Part shown: piece by piece, positions 1,052 to 56,737 of the stretch
Layout of the letters: every line of letters starts with the position of its first letter
How positions within the stretch are numbered: position 1 is the first letter of the stretch
The notes under the pieces: model-generated
Told to the model about the DNA's origin: nothing
The model's database searches: none
Seen by the model: only the letters and a program-made list of their open reading frames with translations
Source of the DNA: Parasphingorhabdus sp.
GTDB taxonomy: Bacteria; Pseudomonadota; Alphaproteobacteria; Sphingomonadales; Sphingomonadaceae
Direction of reading: 5' to 3'
Assembly: GCF_965233695.1 (NCBI RefSeq)
Contig: NZ_OZ247497.1
Span: forward strand, 2,495,277 to 2,559,276
Length of the DNA stretch: 64,000 nt
Position numbers and translations under genes: made by a program

Positions 1052-1122
1052 CTATCTGTTAGGTTCAGGGCACTTTGCAGGGTTTGACATAGTAGGTAAC
1101 TTCCAGTGTTGGCATTGACAAA

Positions 1123-1752
1123 TTGCGACTCCCCTCTCTTTATCGCGACGCAAATTTGGATTCGATAGGGCTTGTTTTGGCATCGGAAAAACACAACAAT
1201 TCTGGAAAATCGGGCGATGCTGGCGACGGCAATAGTCCTGATGAAGCCATGCCCGACAACGATCTTGCAGAGCTGTTTGCCCAGTTCAAACTGCCACTGG
1301 AGAAATATTTCCGCAAAAGAGTTTATAACCAGAACGAAGTCGAAGATCTTGTTCAGGATGTATTCTTTCGGCTGACATCGCGCGCCGACAATGCTGATCT
1401 GGAACGGCCAGAGGCGTTTATTTTCCAGATCGCGGCGAATTTGTTACGCGACAAGGCTCGGCGCGAAGCCACCAAACGCGCTTTTACGAAACAATTATCT
1501 GACCAAAATGAAAATGCTTTTGAGGAAATTTCTCCCGAGCGCGTCTTGCTAGGTAAAGAGAAAGTAGTGGCGCTGAAAAACGCATTGAACGAATTGCCTG
1601 AACGCACACGGACCGTATTCCTGCTGCACAGGTTTGAGGAGTTTAAATATCGTGAGATTGCGCAACAATTGGGTATATCGATGAGTTCAGTTGAAAAGCA
1701 TATGATGGATGCCATCAAACATCTTACGAAGCGGTTGGGGTCGTCCGAATGA
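1123..1752 (+). CDS. ECF RNA polymerase sigma factor, FecI-like (true start may be 1249)
   Basis: Region 2 (EVEDLVQDVFFRL, AFIFQIAANLLRD) and region 4 (LPERTRTVFLLHRFEEFKYREIAQQLGISMSSVEKHM); 4-bp overlap with the FecR gene. Confidence 0.92.
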   Translation: MRLPSLYRDANLDSIGLVLASEKHNNSGKSGDAGDGNSPDEAMPDNDLAELFAQFKLPLEKYFRKRVYNQNEVEDLVQDVFFRLTSRADNADLERPEAFIFQIAANLLRDKARREATKRAFTKQLSDQNENAFEEISPERVLLGKEKVVALKNALNELPERTRTVFLLHRFEEFKYREIAQQLGISMSSVEKHMMDAIKHLTKRLGSSE

Positions 1753-2816
1753 AAGATGCTGATCCCATGAGCCCCGCTGGCGGCAACAATGGCGTTGAGG
1801 AACAAGCGGCCTATTGGTTCGCGCGATTGCGTGCGGACAATGCCAGCAAGGGAGATCAGAGGCGCTTCAAGGGCTGGTTGGAAGAGTGTCCACAGCATGC
1901 CGAAGCATATGCTTTGCAGGAAGAAGTCTGGACGGCAATGCAGGACTGCGCGGTGGACGACGATATCATGGCGATGCGGCAAAATGCCTTGGCGCAAAAC
2001 CCGTCCGCTGCAAATAACAATGTCTGGCTAAAATATGGCGCGATTGCTGCTACACTTCTGGTCCTGGCCGTTTCTGTAGTGATGCTAAACCCATTCGCCA
2101 ATTGGGATGGTTCCGGGTCCACTGCTCCCGCAGATCAATTGGCTGAAGCAGGGGCTCAGGAATCTCCGATCTATCGAACGGGCGTTGGGCAGCGATCAAC
2201 GGTGAACCTGCCCGATGGATCCGTGGTTGAACTGAACACGGACAGTCTGATCCAAGTCAATTACAGCGAAGCAGGTCGAGACGTGATCTTGCTGCGCGGT
2301 GAAGCGCTTTTTGAGGTGGCAAAGGATGTCAACCGTCCCTTTGTGGTTGAGGCAGACGACAAGTTGATAACCGCTATTGGAACATCCTTTTCTGTCAGGC
2401 GGTCGGATGATGAAGTACGGGTCACACTAATAGAAGGCATTGTAACGGTCGACAAAGAAAGCGGTGACGATGCCAATGCCGTCAGCACAAAACAAATGCG
2501 GCCGGGAGAGCAGCTCGTCGCAGCTGGTGATTTGCCGTTCAAGGTCAATGTCATCAACACCGCTACGGTTACGAGTTGGAAAGACGGCAGGTTGATTTTC
2601 GACAATGAACCGCTGGGTATGATTGTTGATGAAGTGAACCGCTACTCCACACGCAAACTTGTGGTGGGTGATTCTGCATTGGCCGACATGCGGGTTAGCG
2701 GTATTTTTCAGGTCGGCTCAATAGACAGTTTCGCTGCTGCGTTAGAGGCTTCTTTCCCGGTAAAGAACAGCGCTCCTGCGGATGAAGGCGACATTGTTCT
2801 CGATTGGAAAGAGTGA
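1749..2816 (+). CDS. FecR-family anti-sigma factor / transmembrane sensor
   Basis: EQAAYWFARL N-terminal motif, single TM segment, YRTGVGQRSTVNLPDGSVVELNTDS FecR domain, C-terminal SWKDGRLIFDNEPL. Confidence 0.93.
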   Translation: MKDADPMSPAGGNNGVEEQAAYWFARLRADNASKGDQRRFKGWLEECPQHAEAYALQEEVWTAMQDCAVDDDIMAMRQNALAQNPSAANNNVWLKYGAIAATLLVLAVSVVMLNPFANWDGSGSTAPADQLAEAGAQESPIYRTGVGQRSTVNLPDGSVVELNTDSLIQVNYSEAGRDVILLRGEALFEVAKDVNRPFVVEADDKLITAIGTSFSVRRSDDEVRVTLIEGIVTVDKESGDDANAVSTKQMRPGEQLVAAGDLPFKVNVINTATVTSWKDGRLIFDNEPLGMIVDEVNRYSTRKLVVGDSALADMRVSGIFQVGSIDSFAAALEASFPVKNSAPADEGDIVLDWKE

Positions 2817-2900
2817 CATTTAGTCACTGAAAAATAAGACTTTTGTCTACCAACATCACTTAATATAATACGATTTTTTTCTCTCAATCCGAAAAGATTA

Positions 2901-2928
2901 TGAGGAAAGCAGATGCTCGCGCGTCTTA
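2901..2928 (+). promoter_or_regulatory. Putative ECF-sigma promoter, TGAGG-N16-CGTCTTA, upstream of the TonB receptor
   Basis: TGAGG at 2901-2905 and CGTCTTA at 2922-2928; same motif and spacing at 6699-6726; CGT is a typical ECF -10 core. Confidence 0.65.
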
Positions 2929-2993
2929 CTTTACATCGGGCCAGTTAGCGGATGACTGACGGCCTGCAGGGAAAGATAAGACAGGGGATCATA

Positions 2994-5900
2994 ATGCAAT
3001 CTCGTTCGTTTAAACTGCTGCAGGCAGCGATGCTTACCGGTGCGGCCAATATCGCAATTGTCGGGTCGGCGCAGGCGCAGGACCAAGCCATGTCCTTCAA
3101 CATGCCCAGCCAGCCTTTGTCCTCCGCTTTGAGGGATTATGCTCTCAAGACCGGGAAAAACCTGGTCTATCCACCCAGCATGGTCGCGAACAAAAGGGCC
3201 AACGCTGTGTCCGGTCGTCATACGCCAAAACAGGCTTTGCGTTTGTTATTGAGAGGAACGTCTATTTCCTTTCGCGAGCTTGAGGGCAATGTTCTAGCGC
3301 TCACCGTGATTGGCAATTCGCGGCTCCGCCAAAATGCGGCCAACCCGGCGACTGTTTCTCCGGCGGTCGTACAGAGCGCTTCGGCCACTAGCGCAATGCA
3401 AGCCGATCCCGGTATTGATGATGGCCCGACCGGAGTGGTTTCCGGTACCGTCGTGAACAGGAGCACCGGAGCGGCGTTAAAAGGGGCGCTGGTGCGTATC
3501 GATGGCACAAATCTCGAAACGGTCACTGATGACCGCGGGCAATATTATTTTCCCGCAGTTCCCCGCGGCCAGCGTGTTGTGCGCGTCGAATATCTGGGTG
3601 AACAGACGCAAACCGCAATCGTTTCGGTCACCGCTGGATCACGTGAGCAAGCGAATATAGAGCTCGGTGCCGCCAATCAGGATATTGTCGTCTTCGGCTA
3701 TCGCAGTTCTATCCAACAAGCGCTGAACAAACAGAAAAATGCGGATAACAATGCGACGATTGTGTCCTCGGATTTGCTTGGCGGATTTCCAGCGGAGACG
3801 GTTTCCGAAGCGCTACGGCGTGTGCCGGGCGTTGCTTTTGGGCGGGATGATGAAACCGGGGAAGGATCGCGTATCACAGTTCGCGGGTTCAGCTCGGAAG
3901 CGATTAACGTGCAACTTAACGGCCTGGAAGTGCAAGGCACAGGATTTGAACGCACCGTCGATCTGAGCGGATTCCTGACGGACAATATTTCTGAAATTAC
4001 CATCCACAAATCCTTGTTGCCCAGCCATGAAGGGACGGGTTCTGGTGGACTGGTCGAGATTGAGACCAAGTCGGGGCTCGATTACGGGGATTTCTCGCTC
4101 AATCTTTCTGTCGAGGGCGAAACCAATTTCGACCGCGCCTTTGGTGAGGAGTATCAGATCAATGGAACGGTCGCAAAGAAGTTGACCGACAATTTCGGGA
4201 TTGCGGCGTCGCTACAATATCGGAAAACGGATCGGTTGAATTATACGGCATCGGTGGTCGACGTTATTCCTTCGGTTTTTCCCGTCGGTGCGACTTCTCT
4301 TTTTAACACGCCGGCAAGTCTTGAATTTCCGTTTGATCCGGAACTCGATCAACAACGGCTTATTACGAGCGCGCAATATGCCCGTACCGATCGCGCGGAA
4401 GAGGCCATAGTGGGTTCGGTGAACCTCGCATGGGATGTCGCGGATCATACCCGCTTCCGTTTGGACTTTCAGCGCAATGAGTCGAATATAGTTAGCAGTA
4501 GATCTACCTCTACTATTGGATATTCGTCTTTTTCTACCGATATGCCCATTCCGGAGCTGGACAATGAAGTGCGTCGGCGCGTGACGTTAAGGTCGTTGAA
4601 TCCGCGCCTCATACTTACATCGACGGATGAACAGCGCACGAGCGATAGTATCAGTTTTCGGGGCGACACGGATGTCGGGCGTTGGGAATTTGAATATAAG
4701 GCCGGTTATGGACGGTCCGAGTTCAAGGGGGATAATAGTTTCGTTAATTTCAACGCTGTGGCAACAAATCTGACGGATCTTATTGATCCCGAAACTATTG
4801 TGATCAATCCTGATGATGACGCCGCTGCAACTCCGCGGGTAGTCAATGGCGGGTTCGTTACGGCTGGTAACGGATTAATCATCCCATCGCTAACGCAGGC
4901 CGGAATTGATTTTGTAAACGATCCTTCTAATTACAATTTTTTCAACGCTGTCATTAACCCGATCGAGAATGTGACTGAAACTTATACTGGGGAGTTTCAG
5001 GCGCGATATAACACGCCTCTGGATTTTCTTGAATATATGGAACTGGGCGGCAAATACCAACGCAACACTCGTACTACCAATGACAATCCGTCCAATCCTC
5101 GGACGATCGCAAGTCAGCGATACACAAGGATTGCGAGCCTTCCCACACCTGTAACATTGTTCAATAACGGCACATTTGACCAGGACGGTCTTGCGAAATT
5201 AGGTGTATCAGAATTTTCCATTCCGTTTCTAAGTCCCTCAAATACAAGCAATATTGTTGATCAACTGCCAGATTTCATAACCGATGACCCTGCTACAGAT
5301 TTCAATGAGGCAAGGTTCACTTTCTTGGACTTCGCGGCGCTGGATCCGCTTGTAACGGGCGCTGCCCTAATACCTACCAAAACCATTGAAGAAAGATTTT
5401 CCGGCTATCTGGAATCAAAGCTTACCGTTGGTGATTTCGATCTTATTGCTGGCGTTCGCTATGAGAGGGAGAAGCGGTCCGGCGTAACCATTACTTCGCA
5501 GAGTTTCGTTTTGAACGAGCCAGGCAGGCGCAGCGAGCCCCGTGAAACATTTGTGGAAGCAGGCCTGGTCAGTTTCGACAGCACTTCTGGTTCGGTGGAT
5601 ACATGGACGCCCAGCTTTCTGCTGACCTATCGCCCGATTGAAAATTTCACCGCACGCCTCGGATATTTCCGTTCCACTATCAATCCGGATTTCCGGTTGC
5701 TAAACCGATCCACCACTTTCAGCGTTGACCTTCGCCCCCAATTTGCGCGTGTGACGATATTGGAAGCCAATCCCAGTCTGAAGCCGTCGACGACCGACAA
5801 TTTCGACCTGGATATTGCTTATTATTTCGATGACTCCCCCGGCCTGGTTCGCGCAGGCTTCTTCTATAAAAAGATCAGCAACAATTTTACTAATGTGTCC

Positions 5901-6578
5901 TTCACGGCGGTCGATAACACAGATGTGCGTCAGAGATTTTTGGATCGGTACCAGCCGCTCGCCGCGACCCGGCCTGATCTCCTTGACCTTGACCCCGGCA
6001 CGGTATTCCTCGTCAATCGGCCTGAAAACGGTGAAGGTGGCACGATTTGGGGCATCGAGGGCGAGCTTATCCGGCGGCTGAACTTCTTACCCGGTTTTCT
6101 AAGTGACTTCGGGGTTCTCGCCAACGTGACCTATACTAACGGCGATTTTCCGACATTGGTTTCGGCCCGTGACGATGATGGCAATACCATTCAACTCAGC
6201 CTTGATCGCCCGTTACGTGATCAGGCGCGGTGGGTGTACAACCTGTCGCTCGATTATGAGCGGGATGGCTTCCAGGGGCGCGTCATCTACACCAGCCAGT
6301 CCGCGACAGTAGAAACTTTCGACGAATTTAACATCAATACGGTTATTCCGGGTTATGACACGCTCGACGCGCGTTTTTCCTATAGCTTTGAAAAAGCGGG
6401 GGGACTGTTCACTCTGTTTTTGGAAGGCGACGACTTACTGCGTGGTTCCAAAAAGCCGGACATACGACAAACGACCAGCTCGCAATTTGGTGATGGAAAT
6501 ACGTCGTTCAATTTCCCCGACACGTTTCAATTTAACGGCGGTCGCACCATCACGATGGGTATCCGTGCGAAATTTTAG
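2994..6578 (+). CDS. TonB-dependent transducer with N-terminal STN signalling domain and carboxypeptidase-regulatory-like domain
   Basis: RBS AGGGGA before ATG 2994; signal peptide; STN (FNMPSQPLSSAL...); GVVSGTVVN...GALVRIDGTNLETVTDDRGQY; plug (SEALRRVPGV, ITVRGF); terminal Phe (GIRAKF). Confidence 0.92.
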   Translation: MQSRSFKLLQAAMLTGAANIAIVGSAQAQDQAMSFNMPSQPLSSALRDYALKTGKNLVYPPSMVANKRANAVSGRHTPKQALRLLLRGTSISFRELEGNVLALTVIGNSRLRQNAANPATVSPAVVQSASATSAMQADPGIDDGPTGVVSGTVVNRSTGAALKGALVRIDGTNLETVTDDRGQYYFPAVPRGQRVVRVEYLGEQTQTAIVSVTAGSREQANIELGAANQDIVVFGYRSSIQQALNKQKNADNNATIVSSDLLGGFPAETVSEALRRVPGVAFGRDDETGEGSRITVRGFSSEAINVQLNGLEVQGTGFERTVDLSGFLTDNISEITIHKSLLPSHEGTGSGGLVEIETKSGLDYGDFSLNLSVEGETNFDRAFGEEYQINGTVAKKLTDNFGIAASLQYRKTDRLNYTASVVDVIPSVFPVGATSLFNTPASLEFPFDPELDQQRLITSAQYARTDRAEEAIVGSVNLAWDVADHTRFRLDFQRNESNIVSSRSTSTIGYSSFSTDMPIPELDNEVRRRVTLRSLNPRLILTSTDEQRTSDSISFRGDTDVGRWEFEYKAGYGRSEFKGDNSFVNFNAVATNLTDLIDPETIVINPDDDAAATPRVVNGGFVTAGNGLIIPSLTQAGIDFVNDPSNYNFFNAVINPIENVTETYTGEFQARYNTPLDFLEYMELGGKYQRNTRTTNDNPSNPRTIASQRYTRIASLPTPVTLFNNGTFDQDGLAKLGVSEFSIPFLSPSNTSNIVDQLPDFITDDPATDFNEARFTFLDFAALDPLVTGAALIPTKTIEERFSGYLESKLTVGDFDLIAGVRYEREKRSGVTITSQSFVLNEPGRRSEPRETFVEAGLVSFDSTSGSVDTWTPSFLLTYRPIENFTARLGYFRSTINPDFRLLNRSTTFSVDLRPQFARVTILEANPSLKPSTTDNFDLDIAYYFDDSPGLVRAGFFYKKISNNFTNVSFTAVDNTDVRQRFLDRYQPLAATRPDLLDLDPGTVFLVNRPENGEGGTIWGIEGELIRRLNFLPGFLSDFGVLANVTYTNGDFPTLVSARDDDGNTIQLSLDRPLRDQARWVYNLSLDYERDGFQGRVIYTSQSATVETFDEFNINTVIPGYDTLDARFSYSFEKAGGLFTLFLEGDDLLRGSKKPDIRQTTSSQFGDGNTSFNFPDTFQFNGGRTITMGIRAKF

Positions 6579-6602
6579 AACGAACCCGTTTCCCCCATCT
6601 GT

Positions 6603-6648
6603 TTCCTGAGGCCGTTCCCACCCCAACACCCCGCATCGGCCTCAGGAA
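6603..6648 (+). terminator. 12-bp stem-loop between receptor and protease genes; no U-tract
   Basis: TTCCTGAGGCCG (6603-6614) pairs with CGGCCTCAGGAA (6637-6648); 22-nt loop. Confidence 0.5.
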
Positions 6649-6698
6649 GCAGCACAAAGTCGTGGATTAGAACGGGGTGCAAATATCAAGTCATTTGT

Positions 6699-6726
6699 TG
6701 AGGGATTGGCGTTCCGGTGCGTCTTA
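6699..6726 (+). promoter_or_regulatory. Putative ECF-sigma promoter, TGAGG-N16-CGTCTTA, upstream of the M16 protease
   Basis: TGAGG at 6699-6703 and CGTCTTA at 6720-6726; matches the 2901-2928 copy. Confidence 0.65.
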
Positions 6727-6785
6727 TATAGTAATAGCCGTTAGCCAGTCCGAATGAACCCCCCTGATTCTCTGGAGACCTAGTA

Positions 6786-9686
6786 ATGCGACAGATATCC
6801 CGGTTGCGATTTCTCAATGCGCTGGTTGTCATATCCTGCTTATTCGTTGCAACTCCTGCATTGACACAGGCGAGCAATCAAAACGCCGGCTTCGCCCATG
6901 ACGGGAGTGACCTGAAACCAGATTCCCGGGTCATTTACGGGACACTCGACAATGGCCTGCGCTATGCGGTGATGAAGAACAGCACGCCCAGCGGGGTTGC
7001 AGCGTTGCGGATGCGGATAGCCACCGGTTCGCTGAACGAGACGGACGAGCAGCAGGGGATTGCTCATTTCCTTGAACATATGGCTTTTAACGGTTCCAAA
7101 AATGTTGCCGAAGGGGAAATGATCAAGCGGCTCGAGCGCTATGGTCTGTCCTTTGGCGCGGACACCAATGCCAGTACCGGTTTCAGCCAAACGACGTACA
7201 AGCTAAACCTGCCCACTGTCGGCGAAGAAATACTGAACGAAGCCTTTTTCCTCATGCGGGAAACAGCGCAAAACCTGACGCTTGATAAAGATGCCATCGA
7301 GCGCGAACGCGGCGTTATTGCTTCGGAAAAACGCAGCCGGGATTCGGTCAACTTTCAGGCATTGATTGCCAATATGGGTTTCCTGACCGAAGGCAGCGGA
7401 CTGGTTGATCGCTTGCCCATTGGCAAAGACGAAACCATCGCGACAATGCCGCGCTCAGAATTTGTCAAATATTATCGTGGTTATTACCATCCGGAAAACA
7501 CCTTCATCGCCTTTATCGGGGATGTGGACACCAATCTGGCAATCAAAAAGATCGAAACCTATTTTGGTAACTGGCAACCACCTTCGGCCCCTGCGCCCGC
7601 GGCGCAAATCCCGCCGGTAAATATCGTTCCTGGAAAAGTCGGCTATCATCAGAACGACGAGATATTGACCTTTGTTTCGCTTGGTATCAAGCATCCCTAT
7701 GAAAAGCGTCCGGATAATCTGGCGCGACGCAAAGAGGGCTTTCTGCGTGCGCTGGGGGCACAGATTGTCAATCGCCGCCTGGATCGCAAAGTCGATTCAG
7801 GTGACGCCCCCTATCTTGATGCGTCAATCTCCCGCTATGCACCGGAGGATACGGTGGACGCATGGGTCATCCGCATGCGCAGCAATCCGGAAAACTGGCG
7901 CGCAGCGCTGGCTGGGGGAGACCAGGAAATACGCCGCGCCTTTACCTATGGTTTTTCCCAATCGGAACTGGATGAAGCACTGGCGCGGTGGCGAAAAAGA
8001 CTGGAGGTGGCAGTTGACCGAAAAGCTACGCGCAAGACCTATGCGGGATTGGAGTATAACTATGCCAAGGAACTGGTCGATAGCTTCGCCAATGAGCGTG
8101 TTTTCACTGCGCCGGAAGATGATCTCGATCGGTTCGAAAAATTTGCTGCAGAGATATCATTGGCCGATGTCGAGAGGGTCTTTCGTGAACGCTGGACGGG
8201 AATTGAAAAACCATTTGTCTATCTTGCGACTAGCGCAAAGCTGGACAATCCCGAAGCGGAGATACGATCTGCTCTAGACGCATCACGTAAGATTGCGGTT
8301 TCACCTTTGGAGAGCGATCAGGCGAAAAAATTTGCCTACACCAATTTTGGCCAAAAGGGACTCGTGGTGAAGGAAGCTTATTTGCCTGATGCGGATGCTT
8401 ACTCGATACTATTTGCCAATAATGTGCGGCTTAATTTCAAACAGACCGATTTTGATGCCGATACCATTGGCATTCGAGTAAGAATTGGCAGTGGATTTCT
8501 CTCCATGCCACAAAAGGATGAAAGCTTGCGACGCCTGGCTGAAAACCTTTTAAATGGTAGCGGCGTTCAAGAGCATAGCGCAGATGAGCTGCATACGCTT
8601 TTTGCCGGTAAACGTGTCGGGACAAGAGTGCGTCTGCGTCCGGATAACGATGCGCTAGAAATTATCGGTGGAACCAACCGGGAGAACCTGTCCGATCAAC
8701 TCAATCTGATGACTGCCCATGTGACGGCTCCAGCCTATCGGGAGCAAACTGTTAGGCGCTATCATGACAAGATGAAAGCATGGTATCCGACACATGATGC
8801 GACGCCGCTGACCGTAGCAGAGAAGGAATTACCGCGCATGATAAGGTCCGGTGATCGTCGTTATGGATACGACGATTTGGAGAGCTTTCTAGCGCCTACG
8901 ATCGAGGATGTGCGCGACTGGATGGGGCCGCAACTCGAAAATGGTTTGATCGAAATCACAATCGTTGGCGATGTCGACCGAGCAACAACAATTGCTGAAG
9001 TTGCCCGGACCTTTGGTGCATTGAGCAAAAGAGCAGACAGCAAGGAAAAATATACCGATATGCGCAAGCTGGATTTCCCGGCGCCGCCAGCCGATCCGTT
9101 TGTTTATTATCATCAGGGCAATGCAGACCAGGCCGTCGTCCGGGTTTACTGGCCAGCACCCGATGCGTCGGATCCCGCCAGTATTTTTAAAATGCAAGTG
9201 TTGCGAAGCATTTTTCGTAACCAGCTGACAACGGTCCTCAGGGAGGAAATGGGGGCGACCTACTCGCCAGGCGCAGGTCTATTCGTCAACGATCTGTTCG
9301 AGGGCTATGGCTATATTTTTGCCAGCGTGATCGCAGCGCCGGATCAAGTCGATGCCGTGCGTCAGGCCATATTGGAGGTAGGACAGGATCTTGCGGGTGG
9401 AACCATTGATCAGGATATTTTCGGGCGCGCGTTGAAACCTATTGTCGATGATATTGACAGCACGCTGCAAAACAACAGCTATTGGCTTTCCGTGTTGGGC
9501 GATGCGCAGACCGAGGGGCACGGGATTGTCAGGCACCGACAGCGCGAGTCGGTTCTCAAGATGATGGCAGTTGAAGATATAAACGCCTTGGCAGCCGAGG
9601 TTTTTGTCGGGAAAAATGCTGTCGCTGCTTATGTTTTGCCGATCACGCAGCAAGAGGACATGATGGAAATGGTACAGCGACCATAA
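6786..9686 (+). CDS. Periplasmic M16 (insulinase/PqqL-like) zinc metalloprotease
   Basis: Signal peptide; inverted zincin motif IAHFLEHMAFNGS; GTLDNGLRY, ADTNAST, IERERGVI; about 966 aa two-half architecture. Confidence 0.92.
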   Translation: MRQISRLRFLNALVVISCLFVATPALTQASNQNAGFAHDGSDLKPDSRVIYGTLDNGLRYAVMKNSTPSGVAALRMRIATGSLNETDEQQGIAHFLEHMAFNGSKNVAEGEMIKRLERYGLSFGADTNASTGFSQTTYKLNLPTVGEEILNEAFFLMRETAQNLTLDKDAIERERGVIASEKRSRDSVNFQALIANMGFLTEGSGLVDRLPIGKDETIATMPRSEFVKYYRGYYHPENTFIAFIGDVDTNLAIKKIETYFGNWQPPSAPAPAAQIPPVNIVPGKVGYHQNDEILTFVSLGIKHPYEKRPDNLARRKEGFLRALGAQIVNRRLDRKVDSGDAPYLDASISRYAPEDTVDAWVIRMRSNPENWRAALAGGDQEIRRAFTYGFSQSELDEALARWRKRLEVAVDRKATRKTYAGLEYNYAKELVDSFANERVFTAPEDDLDRFEKFAAEISLADVERVFRERWTGIEKPFVYLATSAKLDNPEAEIRSALDASRKIAVSPLESDQAKKFAYTNFGQKGLVVKEAYLPDADAYSILFANNVRLNFKQTDFDADTIGIRVRIGSGFLSMPQKDESLRRLAENLLNGSGVQEHSADELHTLFAGKRVGTRVRLRPDNDALEIIGGTNRENLSDQLNLMTAHVTAPAYREQTVRRYHDKMKAWYPTHDATPLTVAEKELPRMIRSGDRRYGYDDLESFLAPTIEDVRDWMGPQLENGLIEITIVGDVDRATTIAEVARTFGALSKRADSKEKYTDMRKLDFPAPPADPFVYYHQGNADQAVVRVYWPAPDASDPASIFKMQVLRSIFRNQLTTVLREEMGATYSPGAGLFVNDLFEGYGYIFASVIAAPDQVDAVRQAILEVGQDLAGGTIDQDIFGRALKPIVDDIDSTLQNNSYWLSVLGDAQTEGHGIVRHRQRESVLKMMAVEDINALAAEVFVGKNAVAAYVLPITQQEDMMEMVQRP

Positions 9687-9948
9687 TTCTTCACTAATTG
9701 TTTCTGTGTCATTGCAGGGAATGTTGTGCGCAAAGCTTCCCGCTATTGCGACCAGCAAGCAGGCAGCACGAATCTGGCAAAGAACCTTTCCGTAGCGTAC
9801 GGAAAAACTCCTTGCCCAAAATTTCCAAGGCAGCTGCCATCGCAGCTTTGTTTCATCGGGCCTAAAACCTTGAGGCCAGGTTTTTCCTTGGAATATCCTG
9901 AAATTTCAATGTCGATCACCAGGAAGTGACGCCCTGTTCTATTTCCGT

Positions 9949-10002
9949 TTGACAGCCTTTCAGCCTTAACATTATAAGATAATGCGAATCATAATCATTA
10001 TC
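9949..10002 (+). promoter_or_regulatory. Sigma70-type promoter overlapped by two staggered Fur boxes
   Basis: TTGACA at 9949-9954 and TATAAG at 9973-9978. GATAATGCGAATCATAATCATTATC (9978-10002) holds two 19-mers offset by 6 bp, each matching 16/19 to GATAATGATAATCATTATC. Confidence 0.85.
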
Positions 10003-10022
10003 AATAATACCCAGGTGAACTT

Positions 10023-12275
10023 ATGAAACAGCTTTCATGCCGCAAGCGGCCTATCTTCGCGTGCAGCACGATTGCGCTATGCTTTTCTCAAGCGGTTTAT
10101 GCAGCGGATGATGTTGACGATGGGTTCGATGCGAATGAAGGCATAACCGTCACTGCAACCCGCGCACCTGTTGCTATTGAGGACGCGCCCGCAACGGTAA
10201 CGGTCATTGATGCAGAGCGGCTCGCAGATGAACTGGCAACTGACGTTCGCGACATTGTCCGTTTCGAACCGGGTATTTCCGTACGCCGTGCACCGGCGCG
10301 TTTTGGCGCGGCTTTGGGCTCCACGGGCAGGGCAGGGAATGAGGATTTCAACATTCGAGGCATCGGCGGCAACCGCGTGCTCATCCAGGTAGACGGCATT
10401 CGCTCGCCACAAGGATTTAGTTTTGGTGCGCAGGATGTCGGCCGCGGCAACGCAACAGATGTCGGTCTTATCAAATCGGTGGAGATCCTCCGCGGTCCAG
10501 CCTCGGCGCTCTACGGCAGCGATGGGCTGTCCGGTGTTGTCAGTTTTACGACATCTGACCCCGTTGATTTTATTGCAGGCGGTAATGCTGTCGGTGGTTT
10601 TGCGCGGGCACAATATAGTTCCGCGGATGAAGAATTTTCCGAGACAATCGCCATTGCCGGGCAGACGGGTGATTTTTCCGCCATGCTGGCTTACTCACGC
10701 CGTGATTTCAAGGAACTCGATAATCAGGGCACAAATGACGTCGAAGGTTCCGAACGGACGACGCCAAATCCACAAGACGGCCAGTCCGACGCGTTTCTGG
10801 GCAAGCTGGTCTGGAACAACGGTGGCCACCGTGTCCGATTGACCGGCGAATATCTGAAACGGGAAGTTTCGTCCAATGTGCTGTCCGGATTAGGACCGGT
10901 TTTTCTGTTTCCAGGACCGCCGAGCTGGATCGTCGATAGCTTGACCGCCGAAGACAGCACTGAACGGGTGCGTGCGTCGATTGACTGGACTTATGAAACT
11001 GAAGAAGATGGTGTCGGATTGATTGATTACGCGCATGTCGCTGCCTATTGGCAGGATGGCGAGGATGTTCAGTTCGCGAGCGAGGGGCGGATTGCAACCG
11101 GAGCAACGCCGCGGCCAGATCGCGAGCGCCTAAATACATTCAACAATCGCGTCTATGGCGTCGCTGCTGACTTCCGGTCAAGCTTCACTACCGGGCCAAT
11201 CAGGCACAATATCACCTATGGCGGTGACTATAGCATTACTCGGCAAGACGGCCTGCGCGATGGTTTGGTTCCGCCAACCGGTGAATTTTTCCCGTCCCGC
11301 GCTTTCCCTGTAACCGATTTTTCGCTGGGCGGTTTTTTCATCGGTAATGCAATGGAATTTGCCGACGGCATCTTCACGCTCTACCCGGCTCTGCGCTTCG
11401 ACTTCTACGACCTCAATCCTGAAGAAGACCCCCTGCTGCCGGGTTTTGTTCCAACCGGACAAGATGGATCAAAAATCTCGCCGAAAGTCGGCGCGGTCTG
11501 GAAATTGGGTGGTAATGTCCGCATGTTCGGCAATTATGCCCGCGGCTTTCGTGCACCTACGCCCAGTCAGGTCAATAATTTCTTCGAGAATCTAGCCTTT
11601 GGCTACACATCGGCACCAAATCCTGATCTGGACCCGGAAACGAGCGAAAGCTTTGAGGCCGGAATCCGGTATAATGCAGACGGAATTGATCTCGGCCTCA
11701 CAGTCTTCTCGGCAAACTATGACGACTTTATCAGTCAGGAAGTAATCGGGGGTTCCTTCACGCCTGCCGATCCGGCGGTATTCCAGTTTATCAATCTGAA
11801 CAGTGTCGATGTATATGGGATTGAGGCCCGCGCTTCTTATGAAGCCGAAAATGGTTTTCGCGCACGGTTTGCCATCGCCTTTGCGGACGGAACGGTGGAA
11901 GCGCCCGACACGACCGATATATCTTTATCGACGATTGATCCGCTCAATGCGATTCTGGGCGTGGGATATCGCGATCCCGGCAATCGGTTCGGCGGCGAGA
12001 TGATTATCTCTTACAATGCGCGCAAGGAAGCCAACGAAACCATTGGCGTGTGCAATGAGGTCTGTTTCCGTCCCGATGAGTCGGCAATTATCGATGCGAC
12101 CGCATTTTACCGGATCACAGACAATTTTACGATCCGGGCCGGCATATTCAACATTACTGACAAGAAATATGCGCTGTGGAGCGACGTTCGCGGATTGAGC
12201 GCATCATCCAGCATTACCGACGCTTTCACCCAGCCCGGACGGAATGCGAGCATTTCCATCAGCGCCAGCTTTTAA
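10023..12275 (+). CDS. TonB-dependent heme/hemoglobin-family receptor
   Basis: FRAP and NPDL motifs (GFRAPTP...APNPDLDPE); plug EILRGPASALYGSDGLSGVV; terminal Phe; Fur boxes upstream. Confidence 0.88.
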   Translation: MKQLSCRKRPIFACSTIALCFSQAVYAADDVDDGFDANEGITVTATRAPVAIEDAPATVTVIDAERLADELATDVRDIVRFEPGISVRRAPARFGAALGSTGRAGNEDFNIRGIGGNRVLIQVDGIRSPQGFSFGAQDVGRGNATDVGLIKSVEILRGPASALYGSDGLSGVVSFTTSDPVDFIAGGNAVGGFARAQYSSADEEFSETIAIAGQTGDFSAMLAYSRRDFKELDNQGTNDVEGSERTTPNPQDGQSDAFLGKLVWNNGGHRVRLTGEYLKREVSSNVLSGLGPVFLFPGPPSWIVDSLTAEDSTERVRASIDWTYETEEDGVGLIDYAHVAAYWQDGEDVQFASEGRIATGATPRPDRERLNTFNNRVYGVAADFRSSFTTGPIRHNITYGGDYSITRQDGLRDGLVPPTGEFFPSRAFPVTDFSLGGFFIGNAMEFADGIFTLYPALRFDFYDLNPEEDPLLPGFVPTGQDGSKISPKVGAVWKLGGNVRMFGNYARGFRAPTPSQVNNFFENLAFGYTSAPNPDLDPETSESFEAGIRYNADGIDLGLTVFSANYDDFISQEVIGGSFTPADPAVFQFINLNSVDVYGIEARASYEAENGFRARFAIAFADGTVEAPDTTDISLSTIDPLNAILGVGYRDPGNRFGGEMIISYNARKEANETIGVCNEVCFRPDESAIIDATAFYRITDNFTIRAGIFNITDKKYALWSDVRGLSASSSITDAFTQPGRNASISISASF

Positions 12276-26096: not shown

Positions 26097-26381
26097 ATGG
26101 CCAGTATTTCGGCCGGCCGCTGACTCATTTCGTCCTTGATTTGGCCAGCGCTACACATCCGGTATTTTGCTGTACCATCGTATTTGGCGATTTTTGTAAA
26201 ATATAATGATGAATTGGTTGATTTGAACGTAACTAAATTACTTCAACCGTAAATTTCCTGACCTTTTGGCCAGTTGAGTCAACAGCCAGTGCGCGTCAGT
26301 CTCTCGCTACAACAATGCTGGGACACACCGGCAACGAGGATTGTCCGTTACCAATGTGACGGACGTAAATGGGAGAGAGCT

Positions 26382-28925
26382 ATGAACATGCGCGCACAAC
26401 GTTACGAATCCCGCTTGACCGCCAAATCTGTCAAGGCAGTTTTGATGGCAACGGTTGCCACATTCACTGTTTCAGGCTTCGCAAATCCGGCCTTCGCACA
26501 GGAAGCAGCGGAAGAAGAAGACAATGTGATCATTACCGTAACAGCGCGTAAGCAGACCGAGTCATTGCAAGAGGTGCCGGTAACGGTGACTGCAATTGGC
26601 GGGGATACGCTCGACAGATATCAGATCAACGAAGTCGCCGATGTTGTAAGCCGCGTCCCTGCACTAAACGTCCAGGTCGGTGGATCCGGTGCCGGAGGAC
26701 AGATCAGTTTGCGCGGGGTCGGAACGACCAATATTTCCGCCGCGTTTGACTCTGCCGTCGCCTTTGATTTTGATGGCGTACAGGTGAGCACGATGCGTCT
26801 GGTACAAGCGTCATTTTTTGACGTGGAGCAGATAGATATTCTCAAAGGCCCGCAATCCCTGTTCTTTGGCAAGAGCGCGACGGCGGGCGTTTTCTCGGTT
26901 CGATCGGCTAACCCCACGCCCAATTGGGAGGCGGGCGTCAAAGTCTCTCAGGAATTTGAGGAAAATGGCACCACCATCGGTGGCTATATCTCGGGACCGC
27001 TTAACGATACGCTGGGTATCAGGGTCGCCGGCCAATATCAGAATATCGAGAAATATGTGGAACTGGAGGCTGGTACGCCTTCGGTCTTTGCAAATTCGGG
27101 CAAGGGATTGGAAAATATTGTCGGCCGCGTGACCCTGCAATGGGATCCGACCGACAATTTCTCGGCGAACCTGAAGTTGAACTATAACCGCAACGAAGGC
27201 GACAGTTTGCTTGGGCATTCCGACATTGATTGTGGTGCCAATGGCGTCGCCGATCCGGTGTTTTTCGCGCTGACCGGAACCTTCTTTGAATCAAACAGCA
27301 GCTGCGACATTCAGGACGGCCTTTATCCGCACCCGGACGGCAATCCTGATCTGCTGGTGATTGCGCCCGGAACGACAGGCGCGGATCGCTATGTCGGGCA
27401 ATCTTATAACGAGACGGAAACATTCTTTGCCCGCCTCGCGATGGATCTGGAGCTTTCCGACACGCTGACATTGTCAACAGTGACCGGCTATCTCGATCTC
27501 GATAACGAGCATCTGGATCATTTCAGCTATGTCGGTATTCGAACCGATGGCCTGCCGGGCGGCGCTCCGGCTCCTTTTTCCGATGCGCTGGAGCAATTCA
27601 CGCAGGAAATTCGCCTAGCCAGTGATTTCGACGGGATGTTCAACTTTGTCGTGGGCGGTTTCTGGGAAAGCCGGAAGCAGCCGCTGGAAACCTCCCAAAA
27701 CGCGTTTCTTGGCACGTTCCTGTTCCCTGATTCCCGCGGAATTACCTATGACTGGGTTGCGCAGCGGACAACCAAAAGCGAGGCGCTATCTTTCTTCGCC
27801 AGCGGTACTCTGGATATCACGGATCAACTGGAACTGTCTGGCGGCGTGCGTTGGACCGATGAACAGAAGACCCACAGATCAAATTTCCCGTTCGTTCACA
27901 ACGCGCTGACATTCCTGAACCCGATCGTTGGCGGACTGGGTCTGGTTGTTCCCGAAGGCTTTAACACCGGGCCAATCAAATTTTCGGACAGCAATATTTC
28001 CCCGGAAATCACCTTGAAATATCAGGCGACACCTGATCTCAATTTCTACGCGTCTTACAAGACCGGATTCAAATCGGGCGGTATTGATAACAGCATCCTG
28101 CCAACCTCTTCGGTTCAGCTGGTTGTTCCGGGATTTGCCGAGCAGTTCCCGGCTCTGTTCCCTGATCCGGTGGCGGCTCGTGAAGCGGCGCTGGATTCGA
28201 TCATTTATGATTCCGAAACCGCCAAAGGCGGCGAGGTCGGGATGAAGGCCTTGCTGGGCGGCGGCGCTTTCCGCGTGAATACGTCGCTCTATTATTTCGT
28301 GTTCGATGATTTGCAGGTTCAGAATTTTGATGGCGCCAACACGCGCTTTCTGACCGTCAACGCCGGTGAGTTGACCACTCAAGGTTTCGACATTGACTGG
28401 TCATGGAGCACGCCGCTTGAGGGGCTGAACCTTTCGGGGACGCTGGGTTACACCGATGCCAAATTCACCGATACGTTCCTGGCAGATGCCGGACCTGACG
28501 GCGTGGGCGGGACTGCCGATGATATCGACATTGATGGTCGCCGCGCCGCGCGTGCACCAAAATGGTCGGGCAATATCGCGGTTGACTGGCTCATCCCCGT
28601 TGGTGATACTCTGGAATTCGGCCTGAGCGGTAATGCCGCCTACAGCGGTTCCTATTTCGCCGGAAACAACAATTTCGCTGATTTTGTGCAGGATGACTAT
28701 GTTTCGCTGGACGCGTCTGTGTCGATTGGTGATCAGGACGGCAAATGGAAATTGTCGCTTATCGGTGTCAATCTGACCGACGAAATCTGGGCCAATACCG
28801 TTGGCGATCGGCCATTCTTGGATGCCGGCAATGCCCTTGGTCGCGCGACCGGTGGCGGTGACGACCGGGTGGTCACACAAAACCGGGGCCGTCAAGTGTT
28901 CGTCGAGGCTGCATTCAAGTTCTGA
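26382..28925 (+). CDS. TonB-dependent receptor
   Basis: RBS GGAGAG; signal peptide; TVTARKQTESLQEVP, ILKGPQSLFFG; terminal Phe. Confidence 0.93.
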   Translation: MNMRAQRYESRLTAKSVKAVLMATVATFTVSGFANPAFAQEAAEEEDNVIITVTARKQTESLQEVPVTVTAIGGDTLDRYQINEVADVVSRVPALNVQVGGSGAGGQISLRGVGTTNISAAFDSAVAFDFDGVQVSTMRLVQASFFDVEQIDILKGPQSLFFGKSATAGVFSVRSANPTPNWEAGVKVSQEFEENGTTIGGYISGPLNDTLGIRVAGQYQNIEKYVELEAGTPSVFANSGKGLENIVGRVTLQWDPTDNFSANLKLNYNRNEGDSLLGHSDIDCGANGVADPVFFALTGTFFESNSSCDIQDGLYPHPDGNPDLLVIAPGTTGADRYVGQSYNETETFFARLAMDLELSDTLTLSTVTGYLDLDNEHLDHFSYVGIRTDGLPGGAPAPFSDALEQFTQEIRLASDFDGMFNFVVGGFWESRKQPLETSQNAFLGTFLFPDSRGITYDWVAQRTTKSEALSFFASGTLDITDQLELSGGVRWTDEQKTHRSNFPFVHNALTFLNPIVGGLGLVVPEGFNTGPIKFSDSNISPEITLKYQATPDLNFYASYKTGFKSGGIDNSILPTSSVQLVVPGFAEQFPALFPDPVAAREAALDSIIYDSETAKGGEVGMKALLGGGAFRVNTSLYYFVFDDLQVQNFDGANTRFLTVNAGELTTQGFDIDWSWSTPLEGLNLSGTLGYTDAKFTDTFLADAGPDGVGGTADDIDIDGRRAARAPKWSGNIAVDWLIPVGDTLEFGLSGNAAYSGSYFAGNNNFADFVQDDYVSLDASVSIGDQDGKWKLSLIGVNLTDEIWANTVGDRPFLDAGNALGRATGGGDDRVVTQNRGRQVFVEAAFKF

Positions 28926-29774: not shown

Positions 29775-30947
29775 ATGCGTGAAGCAGTCGTCGTATCTTA
29801 TGCCCGTACCGGGCTCGCTAAAGCCGGACGGGGTGGGTTTAACATCACACCGCCGATGACGATGGCAGCACACGCCATCAAGCACGCCGTTGCCAAATCG
29901 GGCGTCGAGAGTGATTTTGTCGACGACAGCCTGATGGGCAATGTCGCCCACGCTGCGCCCAATATCGGTCGTAATGCCGCGCTTCTCGCTGGGCTGCCCA
30001 AGTCCACCGCTGGTGCCACGATCAACCGTTTCTGTTCGTCGGGCATGCAGGCCATCGCCATGGCGGCCAACCATATTCGCGGCGATGGCGCGGATTGCGT
30101 TGTAGCAGGCGGCGTGGAAAGCATTTCAATGCAAGGACAGCGCGCGCCGGAAGGCAGCATCGATAACGAAATTCTGAAAATTGCACCCGATATCTTCATG
30201 CCCATGATCGATACCGCGGATATCGTGGCGGAGCGTTATAATGTCAGCCGCGAATATCAGGACGAATATTCCCTGCAATCGCAGCAGCGTATGGCCAAGG
30301 CTCAGGAAGCCGGGCTTTTCGCCGATGAGATCGTACCGATGCAGACGAAGATGAAAGTCGTCGACAAGGAAACCAAGGAAGAGAGCATTGTCGACTACAC
30401 CGTTGATCGCGACGAGTGCAATCGCCCGACCACGACCCTGGAAGGTCTTGCGAAATTGCAGCCGGTCATGGGCGAAGGCAAATATATCACTGCCGGCAAT
30501 GCCAGTCAGTTGTCCGATGGTGCCGCTGCGGTTCTATTGATGGAAGCCAAAGAGGCCGAACGACGCGGGCTGGAACCGCTGGGCCGTTTTGTGTCCTGGG
30601 CCGTCGCCGGATGTGAACCGGATGAAATGGGCATTGGTCCGGTCTTTGCCGTGCCGAAGCTGCTCGAACGGCAAGGCCTGACCGTCGATGATATCGATAT
30701 CTGGGAACTCAACGAAGCCTTTGCGAGCCAGTGCCTGTACAGCCGCGATCGTCTGGGCATTGATCCGGAAAAATATAACGTCAACGGCGGCTCGATTTCG
30801 ATTGGCCACCCCTTTGGCATGACCGGGGCGCGCTGTGCCGGGCATTTGTTGCAGGAAGGCCGCCGTCGTGGCGCCAAATGGGGCGTCGTCACCATGTGTA
30901 TCGGTGGCGGGCAGGGCGGAGCAGGCCTGTTCGAAATCTACCCCTGA
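29775..30947 (+). CDS. Acetyl-CoA C-acyltransferase (thiolase)
   Basis: NRFCSSG, NEAFA, GHPFG and TMCIGGG catalytic motifs. Confidence 0.95.
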   Translation: MREAVVVSYARTGLAKAGRGGFNITPPMTMAAHAIKHAVAKSGVESDFVDDSLMGNVAHAAPNIGRNAALLAGLPKSTAGATINRFCSSGMQAIAMAANHIRGDGADCVVAGGVESISMQGQRAPEGSIDNEILKIAPDIFMPMIDTADIVAERYNVSREYQDEYSLQSQQRMAKAQEAGLFADEIVPMQTKMKVVDKETKEESIVDYTVDRDECNRPTTTLEGLAKLQPVMGEGKYITAGNASQLSDGAAAVLLMEAKEAERRGLEPLGRFVSWAVAGCEPDEMGIGPVFAVPKLLERQGLTVDDIDIWELNEAFASQCLYSRDRLGIDPEKYNVNGGSISIGHPFGMTGARCAGHLLQEGRRRGAKWGVVTMCIGGGQGGAGLFEIYP

Positions 30948-30988
30948 ACTTTCGAGACAATACGCATATTTAAGGAATAGAAGCAGTT

Positions 30989-31918
30989 TTGGATCAACTA
31001 ACGGACGAACAAGTCGAACGCCGGCTTTCGGAAGCTTTGGCCAATCGCGCCTCCGTGTCTGCGGAGAAGCTGATAGCCGGATTGCTCCGCACCTTTAATC
31101 TTGCGGCAGACGGTGAAGACGAATTTGTCTTTCCGGCGCTCAATTCATCGGCGCGGGAGCGGATTTTTGGTGGTCAGGTGATTGCGCAAGCCATTGTCGC
31201 AGCGGATCGTACGGTCGATGCCGAGAAGAATATTCACTCGCTCCATTCCTATTTTCTGCGCGCGGGAGATGAAACAAAGCCGCTGCATTTTCGGGTGCAT
31301 CGCGACTTTGACGGCCGCAGCATTTCCAATCGCAGGGTCGTCGTTCGGCAGAATGACAAGGTTATTTTCAACCTGACGGCCTCTTTCCAAAAAGCGGCTG
31401 ACGGGCTGCAACATCAGATATCCATGCCGGATGTCATGCCGCCCGACCAGTGCATGAGCGCGATGGAGCAAATTGCCCGTAACCCGCAGGTATCGGACAA
31501 GCATATCGAACGGATGAGCATGCCGCGACCCTTTGATGTGCGCAGCTTTCGCCCCGAAGGCAAAAGCCCGGACGCGCGCCAGTATCAATGGTTCAAGACC
31601 GTAGCCCCACTGCCGGATGATCCGTTGATCCATCGCGCCACTTTGGCCTTTGCGTCCGACATGGGATTGCTCTCCACGTCAATGATACCTCATGGCCTGC
31701 ACTGGACCACGCCGGGTCTATTTTCGACCAGTCTTGATCATGCGATGTGGTTCCATGATGACTTTAGAATGGATCAATGGATCTGCTATGTGATGGACAG
31801 CGATTGGACCGGCCACACGCGCGGCCTCAATCGCGGCGCCCTCTATACGCAGGATGGCAAGCTGGTGGCGTCAGCTGTTCAGGAAGGCTTGATCCGACTG
31901 ACGCCCCAAAAAAGCTAA
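30989..31918 (+). CDS. tesB: Acyl-CoA thioesterase II
   Basis: IFGGQVIAQA, HSLHSYFLRAGD, RDFDGRS, LAFASD, SLDHAMWFH, QEGLIR. Confidence 0.9.
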   Translation: MDQLTDEQVERRLSEALANRASVSAEKLIAGLLRTFNLAADGEDEFVFPALNSSARERIFGGQVIAQAIVAADRTVDAEKNIHSLHSYFLRAGDETKPLHFRVHRDFDGRSISNRRVVVRQNDKVIFNLTASFQKAADGLQHQISMPDVMPPDQCMSAMEQIARNPQVSDKHIERMSMPRPFDVRSFRPEGKSPDARQYQWFKTVAPLPDDPLIHRATLAFASDMGLLSTSMIPHGLHWTTPGLFSTSLDHAMWFHDDFRMDQWICYVMDSDWTGHTRGLNRGALYTQDGKLVASAVQEGLIRLTPQKS

Positions 31919-31921
31919 ACG

Positions 31922-33664: not shown

Positions 33665-33694
33665 ATTTTTCTCTCCTAATTGATGTTCGCGAAC

Positions 33695-35731: not shown

Positions 35732-36070
35732 TTTCTTCTCCTGCAAGATCATGCTTGGGCGGCAAGGAGATGCGGCGTGCATGAAGACCAGGCCCGGATA
35801 ACGAGCAAGCGAATGGGCTATCACAAACAATTGCGATTGGAAATCAGGCTTGTGAAGTTCTTGGAATTGATAATGCTGTCGCTGACCTCATTTGGAATGA
35901 TGAGATCACATTGATCCATCCGAAGTGCAGCTGGCTGCCTTGTTTTCTGTTTATAAGTTGCGATCAAACTTCTCTATGCGCACATCGCATCAATCCCACA
36001 TAACATGCAGGATGTGCGTCGTTTGTCACTTCTCTTAAGTTCTGAACGCAACGATTCTTGCCATGTCAAA

Positions 36071-50266: not shown

Positions 50267-50269
50267 GCT

Positions 50270-51217: not shown

Positions 51218-51504
51218 TCTGCGCCCGTCAGATCACCGATAATGGTTTTGACAATCGCGCCAGTGCGTTGATCCAACCGGCTCTGCAGCGTTTCATCGGG
51301 CTGATAATTTTCAACCGCCTCTGTAACGTCGATGCCTTTGTCCGCCAGTATTTTTTCCAGCACCATCTGCCGGTCGGTCAGCACGCAGATTTCCCGGGTC
51401 AGACTGATCAGGGCCCGACCGAGATTGTCGACTTGTTCGGGATGCAGCAGCTTGCCTTCGGGGAAGTTAAAGCTGGTAGGCGTGTCGCGATCCGGACCGC
51501 TCAT
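51214..51504 (-). CDS. Small hypothetical helical protein
   Basis: 4-bp overlaps with both neighbours; DNLGRALISLTREICVLTDRQMVLE. Confidence 0.75.
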   Translation of the reverse strand: MSGPDRDTPTSFNFPEGKLLHPEQVDNLGRALISLTREICVLTDRQMVLEKILADKGIDVTEAVENYQPDETLQSRLDQRTGAIVKTIIGDLTGAE

Positions 51505-53965: not shown

Positions 53966-53971
53966 GAACTG

Positions 53972-56728: not shown

Positions 56729-56737
56729 GACAGCCTC

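Follow-up and report, generated by a model that had tools for sequence, protein, structure and literature searches.

The 64-kb stretch of Parasphingorhabdus sp. DNA analyzed here (the window) carries, at 1123-9686, a module of four genes on the plus strand that encode a sigma factor with extracytoplasmic function (ECF), a FecR-type regulator, a large TonB-dependent transducer, and a zinc protease of family M16. Comparison with related loci suggests, with moderate confidence, that the module is a substrate-inducible system for the uptake and periplasmic degradation of a peptide or small protein, operating under cell-surface signaling. The original prediction, made from the DNA alone, had described an ECF sigma factor, FecR, a large STN-type receptor, and an HXXEH-type M16 protease in one orientation, and had proposed that they form a system that senses, imports, and proteolyzes a protein or large peptide. 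The gene content and orientation were confirmed, and the proposed function was supported as far as sequence can test it. The genes are:

1123-1752, plus strand: open reading frame of the ECF sigma factor gene, its coding part likely 1249..1752 (Pfam Sigma70_r2, r4_2, and ECF)
1749-2816, plus strand: FecR-type anti-sigma/sigma regulator (Pfam DUF4880 and FecR; partial match to NCBIfam PRK09774)
2952-6578, plus strand: TonB-dependent transducer of 1208 amino acids (Pfam; NCBIfam TIGR01782 above cut-off)
6786-9686, plus strand: PqqL-like M16 zinc protease of 966 amino acids (Pfam Peptidase_M16 and two M16_C)

The receptor and protease genes are preceded by the same motif, TGAGG-N16-CGTCTT, as had been noticed earlier, and a third copy lies within the sigma gene. 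The transcription signals of the module are:

1084..1143, plus strand: conserved region resembling a sigma-70 promoter, upstream of the sigma gene (sequence; alignment of 11 close relatives)
1521..1547, plus strand: third copy of the ECF motif, inside the sigma gene (exact motif match)
2901..2929, plus strand: putative ECF-type promoter of the receptor gene, TGAGGAAAGCAGATGCTCGCGCGTCTTAC (exact motif match)
6595..6652, plus strand: stem-loop after the receptor stop codon (fold -42.4 kcal/mol, z = -4.7; stem of 16-20 bp, no T run)
6699..6727, plus strand: putative ECF-type promoter of the M16 gene, TGAGGGATTGGCGTTCCGGTGCGTCTTAT (exact motif match)

The exact match at 2901-2927 is located ~50 nt before the receptor open reading frame, and that at 6699-6725 is ~86 nt before the ATG of the protease gene, with identical spacing of the two motif elements. 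Both strands of the window contain only three exact matches, all in the module, versus 0.01 expected from 100 shuffles, none of which reached three. Receptor and protease seem to be transcribed as separate units from promoters of one type, because a stem-loop follows the receptor gene and Erythrobacter-type relatives (L013, L014, L022, and others) carry a canonical terminator, a hairpin with a T run, at the same position. The terminator search made no intrinsic-terminator call for the stem-loop at 6595..6652.

The objects for comparison were 59 loci obtained by a receptor-alignment scan, one genome per species, or 60 loci counting the window. They belonged to Sphingomonadales, Caulobacterales, Maricaulis, hyphomonads, Woeseiaceae, and Glaciecola, and were typed by tblastn with peptidase queries and by Pfam. 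Genes for the sigma factor and FecR accompany the receptor in essentially all loci not broken by a contig end. An M16 gene was found in 41 of the 60 loci (counting the window and a locus whose M16 is of another kind), in four gene orders:

Sigma-fecR-receptor-M16: 26 loci (Parasphingorhabdus, Erythrobacteraceae)
M16 divergent from sigma-fecR-receptor: 2 loci (Qipengyuania)
Receptor-sigma-fecR-M16: 5 loci (Glaciecola, Algimonas, Litorimonas)
M16 divergent from receptor-sigma-fecR: 7 loci (Maricaulis, Woeseiaceae, others)

The motif follows these rearrangements. Matches to a strict pattern, TGAGG-N16-C[GA]TC[TA], were counted with upstream regions of 150 nt:

Upstream of receptor genes: 36 matches in 9.0 kb
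Upstream of M16 genes: 23 matches in 6.2 kb
At a fixed place inside sigma genes: 33 matches in 13.5 kb
Everywhere else: 18 matches in 2.5 Mb

This corresponds to an enrichment of ~500-fold over background upstream of receptor and M16 genes across the 60 loci. With a relaxed pattern the motif precedes the receptor gene in 51/60 loci, and with the strict one in 36/60. It precedes the M16 gene in 28 of 40 loci, including all nine in which M16 is divergent, while in the order receptor-sigma-fecR-M16 the protease gene occupies an operon position behind the motif-bearing receptor gene. The -10 element also varies in concert. Nine Erythrobacter-type loci have CATC in place of CGTC at the receptor and sigma-internal sites (9/9) and at the M16 site (8/8 of those carrying one), and the Algimonas/Litorimonas group has CGTT. 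Such co-variation is expected if one sigma factor reads all sites and thus supports sigma control of the protease. It probably reflects few evolutionary events and is supportive rather than a statistical proof. The predicted co-induction of receptor and protease is therefore supported at the level of promoter sequences, since the motif stays with M16 through four gene orders and co-varies with that of the receptor, and the sigma factor very probably co-controls both genes.

Linkage of the receptor to a peptidase is even broader than its linkage to M16. A synteny search had been suggested as a check on whether the protease is kept beside homologous receptors, and it gave a positive answer: a peptidase adjoins the module in 54 of the 56 loci with enough flanking sequence, being M16 in 41, a DUF4953 Met-zincin in 9, and an S9 peptidase alone in 4. 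In loci lacking M16, the receptor gene is followed by a gene for a different peptidase of secreted type, either a Met-zincin of ~860-900 amino acids with DUF5117/5118 in addition to DUF4953 (L011, L012, L017, L020, L031, L032, L033, L056, L057) or a member of the S9 prolyl-oligopeptidase family (L021, L028, L030, L035). Three loci have extra peptidases (S9 in L011 and L012, M3 in L032). The two exceptions are L018, where the receptor gene is interrupted, and L034, which has a weak M19-like protein 2 kb off. In L018 (Qipengyuania citrea) the receptor homologue at L018:8563-9914 lacks the first 350 residues and has transposase-like open reading frames ahead of it, and an insertion sequence seems to have disrupted the module. 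The replacement of M16 by unrelated peptidases indicates that the receptor is tied to peptide-bond hydrolysis and not to M16 chemistry as such.

The motif copy inside the sigma gene (1521-1547) is located ~200 nt before the fecR start, over codons for F/V-E-E-I/L-S-P-E-R-V/I-L (F-E-E-I-S-P-E-R-V-L in the window) in the linker that joins sigma regions 2 and 4. Of 54 sigma genes, 33 have it at this position (L001-L036 and others), and it is confined to lineages with the order sigma-fecR-receptor. Selection appears to act on the DNA here and not on the protein alone, because the motif is written in rare codons and the switch from CGTC to CATC was made despite the Val-to-Ile change that it costs. 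In genomes with 60-68% GC, receptor genes use TTA for 0% and TTA or TTG for 1-8% of their Leu codons, and the Leu codon at the internal motif is TTA or TTG. T is the last letter of the codon ahead of Glu-Glu (TTT, GTT, ATT), and CGC-GTC encodes Arg-Val in every case. Sigma genes that encode a similar peptide without the motif (L021, L033, L057) use ordinary high-GC codons, for example GTG-GTG or GTC-CTG. From the internal copy the sigma factor probably starts transcripts that increase the expression of only the anti-sigma gene. It would be a clean case of a regulatory DNA element constraining codons inside the gene of the regulator.

The sigma gene probably starts at ATG 1249 rather than at TTG 1123, because the latter sits within a conserved promoter element, TTGACA-N17-CTTTAT. 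TTGACA occurs at 1084-1089 and 1115-1120, and the whole element, conserved in the 11 close relatives aligned, looks like a housekeeping promoter of the sigma gene. Relatives of the sigma factor are alignable only from residue 4 on, numbering from M43. The protein is an ECF sigma factor of the FecI-like clade. In NCBIfam it passed the cut-off only for the superfamily model TIGR02937, and its top-scoring partial matches, below cut-off, were to TIGR02985 (Bacteroidetes type) and to FecI-type models. The fecR start overlaps the stop codon of the sigma gene. Its product has the organization of a FecR-type regulator, with DUF4880 at residues 18-56, a single hydrophobic span at ~97-112, and the FecR domain at 142-232.

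The receptor gene likely starts at ATG 2994. Its product consists of a signal peptide, an STN domain (70-117), a linker, an Ig-like CarboxypepD_reg domain (163-238), the TonB-box-like sequence DIVVFG at residue 244, a plug (261-355), and a barrel. An STN domain ahead of the TonB box is the layout of FecIRA-type signaling receptors. It is a member of the 'Xanthomonas/Caulobacter' (TonB-Xanth-Caul) subfamily TIGR01782 (332.6 bits, cut-off 310, residues 245-1208). The AlphaFold2 model, with a mean predicted local distance difference test score (pLDDT) of 79.6, has a big barrel, long outer loops, and a disordered linker after STN, and Foldseek gave matches to generic TonB-dependent transporters (TBDTs). 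Matches in PDB found by phmmer were confined to the signaling domains of FpvA, PupA, HasR, and FemA in the STN region.

The receptor gene is, by alignment, a recombination mosaic among close relatives (L002 and L007; the window versus L036, L005, and L007). Between L002 and L007 the sigma factors are identical, FecR is 94% and M16 98% identical, and the receptors are only 66% identical, with 76-98% over the first 400 residues and ~50% in the barrel. This swapping of barrels suggests that the face binding ligands or exposed to phages is under strong selection. The M16 protease of the window is 98% identical to a protein of a JGI contig on which the receptor is only 83% identical.

The protease has the zinc motif HFLEH at residue 94 and, downstream at residue 172, ERERGVIASE, which aligns with ERGVITEE of PqqL. 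One active N-terminal unit with an intact zinc site is followed by two M16_C units, as in linked single-chain M16 enzymes of the PqqL/FusC type. Full-length matches in PDB were obtained to 9ldy and to PqqL 6ofs (E ~1e-52 to 1e-53). Residues 43-938 matched PqqL by phmmer with E 2.4e-52, and BLASTP gave 27% identity to E. coli PqqL over 614 amino acids (E 9e-54), while the match to FusC was limited to the N-terminal unit. The N-terminus resembles a Sec signal peptide, as judged by eye, and together with the homology to PqqL points to a periplasmic location. The sequence VISC at residues 15-18 was considered as a lipoprotein signal of the window protease and rejected, since its Cys is not conserved among Parasphingorhabdus homologues.

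Sequence comparison established the genes and their domains, the motif and the way its sites co-vary, the conservation of the linkage, and the substitution of other peptidases for M16, and these allow the following mechanism to be proposed. The sigma and anti-sigma genes would be expressed from the housekeeping-type promoter without iron regulation. Binding of the ligand, which we infer to be a peptide or protein, to the large outer membrane receptor would be signaled by its periplasmic STN domain to the FecR-type regulator, and the ECF sigma factor would be released or activated. It would then transcribe from three TGAGG-N16-CGTCTTA promoters, those of the receptor, of M16, and of the sigma-internal start raising only the anti-sigma. 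The TonB-energized receptor would bring the ligand into the periplasm, where the clamshell-like M16 protease would cut it into pieces small enough for transport across the inner membrane. The PqqL-homologous protease with an intact zinc site and a signal peptide, the large long-looped barrel of the receptor, and a sigma factor and receptor layout nearer to the nutrient type of Bacteroidota than to the iron FecI type all fit this scheme.

Several points weigh against it. No gene in the loci names the ligand. The receptor appears unrelated to FusA and YddB beyond the TBDT fold, and the precedent for import of whole proteins thus comes without transfer by homology. The M16 subfamily does not seem to be dedicated to the module, because some homologues stand alone: those at 44-45% identity have no receptor near, and one at 43% is in a module. 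The comparison suggests that the module recruited a general periplasmic peptidase. Two stand-alone homologues, P0098 and P0084 (contexts L061 and L062), adjoin a gene for a PEMT-type methyltransferase. A MacAB-TolC-like exporter operon beside the module in eight loci (L039, L045, L046, L051, L054, L056, L058, L059) is not explained by plain nutrient uptake. It comprises four genes, for a MacB_PCD/FtsX permease, an ABC ATPase, an HlyD adaptor, and an OEP/TolC-like protein (e.g., L056:17895-22164), and in L045, L046, and L056 it carries an ECF motif copy of its own, so that it joins the putative regulon. The protease could act outside the periplasm, because a lipobox is present in several homologues and export by Sec may end in more than one location. 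The test for iron control covered Fur, and control through Irr, RirA, or small RNAs would escape it. Finally, among public sequencing runs, the sequence of the module was found in DNA-type runs only, and no RNA run has it.

The question of location bears on an unlikely, though not negligible, alternative, in which the protease is exported or surface-anchored, cuts an extracellular protein, and leaves oligopeptides for import by the receptor in a Sus-like manner. All partner peptidases have signal peptides, the DUF4953 Met-zincins are large enzymes of secreted type, and the N-terminal layout of the receptor is common to the SusC type. Many M16 homologues outside Parasphingorhabdus (P0015, P0018, P0049-P0061, and others) carry a lipobox (LAGC, LSAC, LTAC, and the like), and in hyphomonad-type homologues the residue at +2 is not Asp, suggesting outer membrane anchoring. 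The window protease and its Parasphingorhabdus relatives, on the contrary, have signals of the signal-peptidase-I type and no conserved Cys, and the closest characterized homologue, PqqL, is periplasmic; the location of the protease may therefore differ between lineages. The substrates of M16 clamshell and S9 peptidases are limited to peptides or small unfolded chains, as would suit a step that follows import, and neither a SusD-like partner nor a secretion system was found in the loci.

Iron piracy similar to that of the Fus system is improbable. According to this explanation the receptor imports an iron or heme protein from which M16 frees the cofactor, as with FusA/FusC and as proposed for YddB/PqqL. 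The protease is PqqL-like, pairs of a TBDT and M16 are the hallmark of the published protease-associated import systems, and the module of the window adjoins an iron locus, as the original prediction had stated:

9978-12275 on to 17185: Fur-controlled TonB receptor block of the heme/hemoglobin type (Fur box, receptor, DUF6607 gene, three-gene ABC importer)

This neighborhood is probably local and fortuitous, because synteny stops at the M16 stop codon and the heme receptor has no homologue in any other locus. DNA similarity to the closest relatives (L036, L005, L003) ends within ~50 nt of that codon, and the closest relative lacks the heme locus. Fur boxes were searched for with a 19-bp consensus, taking at least 14/19 identical positions within 350 nt upstream as a match. 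In none of the 60 loci did the sigma, receptor, or M16 gene have such a match, although the scan does detect the box of the heme locus before its receptor (9978-10008, 16/19, three overlapping registers). The module also has no gene for a FusB-type TonB or a FusD/YddA-type ABC protein. The absence of Fur boxes from the module and the interchange of peptidases, with a Met-zincin or S9 in place of M16 in 13 loci, favor catabolism of a peptide or protein over iron piracy; the iron-scavenging option offered earlier is thus disfavored.

The receptor is likewise distinct from those of iron piracy systems. BLASTP against YddB gave E 0.001 over a segment at the end of the plug only, PDB matches by phmmer included no FusA or YddB chain, and in the Foldseek search with the receptor model YddB ranked 40th among generic TBDTs. 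YddB itself matches no NCBIfam model. Homology to FusA/YddB was thus not found by phmmer against PDB, Foldseek, or BLASTP with YddB; a direct alignment to FusA was not part of this comparison. As in Pectobacterium, where FusA and FusC work with FusB and FusD, and in E. coli with YddA/YddB/PqqL, the module has a linked M16 protease, here a full-length homologue of PqqL. It differs in that its receptor belongs to another TBDT subfamily (TIGR01782) and has STN and CarboxypepD_reg domains, its control is by an ECF sigma factor and FecR instead of Fur, no dedicated TonB paralogue or ABC partner is present, and the protease may be replaced by non-M16 peptidases in related modules. By analogy, the module would work like a protease-associated import system, but its receptor places it outside that family.

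The characterized Fus and YddB/PqqL systems are controlled by Fur in response to iron limitation and not by FecIR, and sigma factors are unmentioned in the main text of the paper describing them (Grinter et al. 2019, PMC6793856). S1 Table of the same paper lists FecI/FecR beside FusA homologues, in one case (Azonexus) together with a homologue of FusC (M16). The earlier statement that these systems are not FecIR-controlled is correct for the characterized ones, and the occurrence of FecIR beside a Fus-type receptor is already on record as a table entry. In those loci, as in the window, a FecI-type sigma factor and FecR adjoin a receptor of protein-import type. They involve FusA homologues of beta- and gammaproteobacteria in iron-type contexts (Feo, a cytochrome-c-type partner) and were tabulated only; the module of the window differs in receptor family, taxa, lack of iron signals, and promoter evidence. 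A literature search yielded no paper linking FecR, TonB-dependent receptors, and M16/insulinase; one genome report names M16 and TBDTs, unlinked.

A third explanation, quite doubtful, is that a specific secreted peptide (a metallophore, a signal, or an antimicrobial) is sensed by the receptor, pumped by the MacAB-TolC-like exporter, and processed or destroyed by the protease. The exporter operon with its own motif copies would suit such a shuttle or detoxification function, the swapping of receptor barrels resembles the outcome of an arms race, and the Has system shows that a cell-surface-signaling regulon can hold an exporter for the carrier of a ligand. The pump was, however, not found in the window or in 52 of the 60 loci, no genes for precursor peptides or their biosynthesis were seen, and the way M16, Met-zincin, and S9 replace one another is easier to reconcile with bulk catabolism than with specific processing.

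It is very improbable that the protease belongs to the signaling pathway itself, for example as a periplasmic site-1 protease cleaving the FecR-type regulator. Proteolysis of the anti-sigma in the periplasm is needed, and proteases beyond Prc have been suspected, but known pathways use Prc and RseP, the sigma-type promoter places the protease downstream of the sigma factor, and the sigma-FecR-receptor core is kept where M16 is replaced or lies kilobases off on the other strand. Mere adjacency of an unrelated housekeeping protease with a chance motif, which the stand-alone homologues might suggest, is hardly credible in view of the motif statistics, the -10 co-variation, and the linkage maintained through four gene orders and several bacterial orders.

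As an uptake-and-degradation system under cell-surface signaling, the module is a variant that combines such signaling with protease-associated import and not a new category. It shares with FecIRA-type systems (E. coli Fec; Pseudomonas Fox, Fiu, and Pup) the ECF sigma factor, the single-pass FecR with its N-terminal anti-sigma domain, and the STN receptor. A conserved and co-varying motif of sigma-type promoters also precedes the receptor gene, and the sigma factor may use it upon ligand induction. The FecIRA-type systems sense iron carriers and their sigma genes are repressed by Fur, a feature typical though not strictly defining of the type; the module has no Fur box, includes a protease in its predicted regulon, and has an extra Ig-like domain in the receptor. 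The Has system of Serratia (HasI/HasS/HasR, hemophore HasA) is comparable in that its signaling receptor senses a protein ligand. Biville et al. (2004) are reported to have found that the Has sigma factor induces the anti-sigma gene hasS and not its own gene hasI; fecIR, by contrast, is not autoregulated. From the position of the internal promoter, a Has-like anti-sigma logic may be predicted for the module. Has nevertheless is a heme system under Fur control that comprises a hemophore and a type I exporter, while in the module the sigma gene would contain the anti-sigma promoter and a protease would be co-induced.

Similarity to the SusC-like transducers of Bacteroidota polysaccharide utilization loci (PULs; ECF10 and ECF239-240) is seen in the arrangement of STN, a CarboxypepD_reg-type extension, TonB box, and plug, and in TIGR02985 as the best partial model of the sigma factor. 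A nutrient-degrading enzyme is encoded beside the receptor in both cases, glycoside hydrolases in the PULs and peptidases here, and the host of the module is an alphaproteobacterium. The receptor does not belong to the SusC/RagA family, for its match to TIGR04056 reached 38 bits against a cut-off of 368 and covered residues 163-316 only. No SusD-like gene was found in any of the locus clusters.

The window has a GC content of ~50-52%, and protein homologues put the organism in Parasphingorhabdus or close to it, within the order Sphingomonadales that the original prediction had assumed. A minus-strand gene runs from ~1013 off the window start (1-1013); its N-terminus resembles that of the 2,4-dienoyl-CoA reductase FadH, which it may encode. 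Two more TonB-dependent receptors, without STN, are encoded at 26274-28925 and 36218-38557, and a set of fatty acid beta-oxidation genes (thiolase, acyl-CoA synthetase, FadB-like) at 29775-35830. These genes are ordinary chromosomal context in which the ECF motif is not repeated. A minus-strand cluster at 49070-57739 encodes two beta-lactamase-fold proteins, an MFS_2 transporter, an ornithine cyclodeaminase-family protein, an S33-type alpha/beta hydrolase, and an aldehyde dehydrogenase, and may be a catabolic cluster for peptides or D-amino acids. In public sequencing data, two 2025 runs from one organism, in a study with a Hi-C library, contain all words sampled from window positions 1100-9700, and metagenomes from biofilm, algae, phycosphere, pond, and sediment contain 24-38% of them. 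The bacterium may live in association with a eukaryotic host or an alga.

TonB-dependent signaling in proteobacteria has been studied almost wholly in iron systems, and receptor and M16 pairs as iron piracy of pathogens. The module unites both in free-living bacteria of marine and aquatic habitats (sphingomonads, caulobacters, Maricaulis, Woeseiaceae), without an iron signal and with a peptidase partner. We tentatively propose, at somewhat less than even confidence, that it represents a widespread class of non-iron cell-surface signaling in proteobacteria, in which a transducer that senses peptides or small proteins turns on a peptidase of the periplasm, interchangeably M16, Met-zincin, or S9. 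Such a 'peptide utilization locus', comparable to the PULs of Bacteroidota and equipped with a codon-embedded feedback promoter for the anti-sigma, would have in the window perhaps its first recognizable member. If this is true, one sigma factor with three promoters would offer a simple genetic handle for finding the ligand, and abundant heterotrophs would be able to sense peptides that exceed the size limit of porins and to import them, a point at issue in the turnover of marine organic matter.

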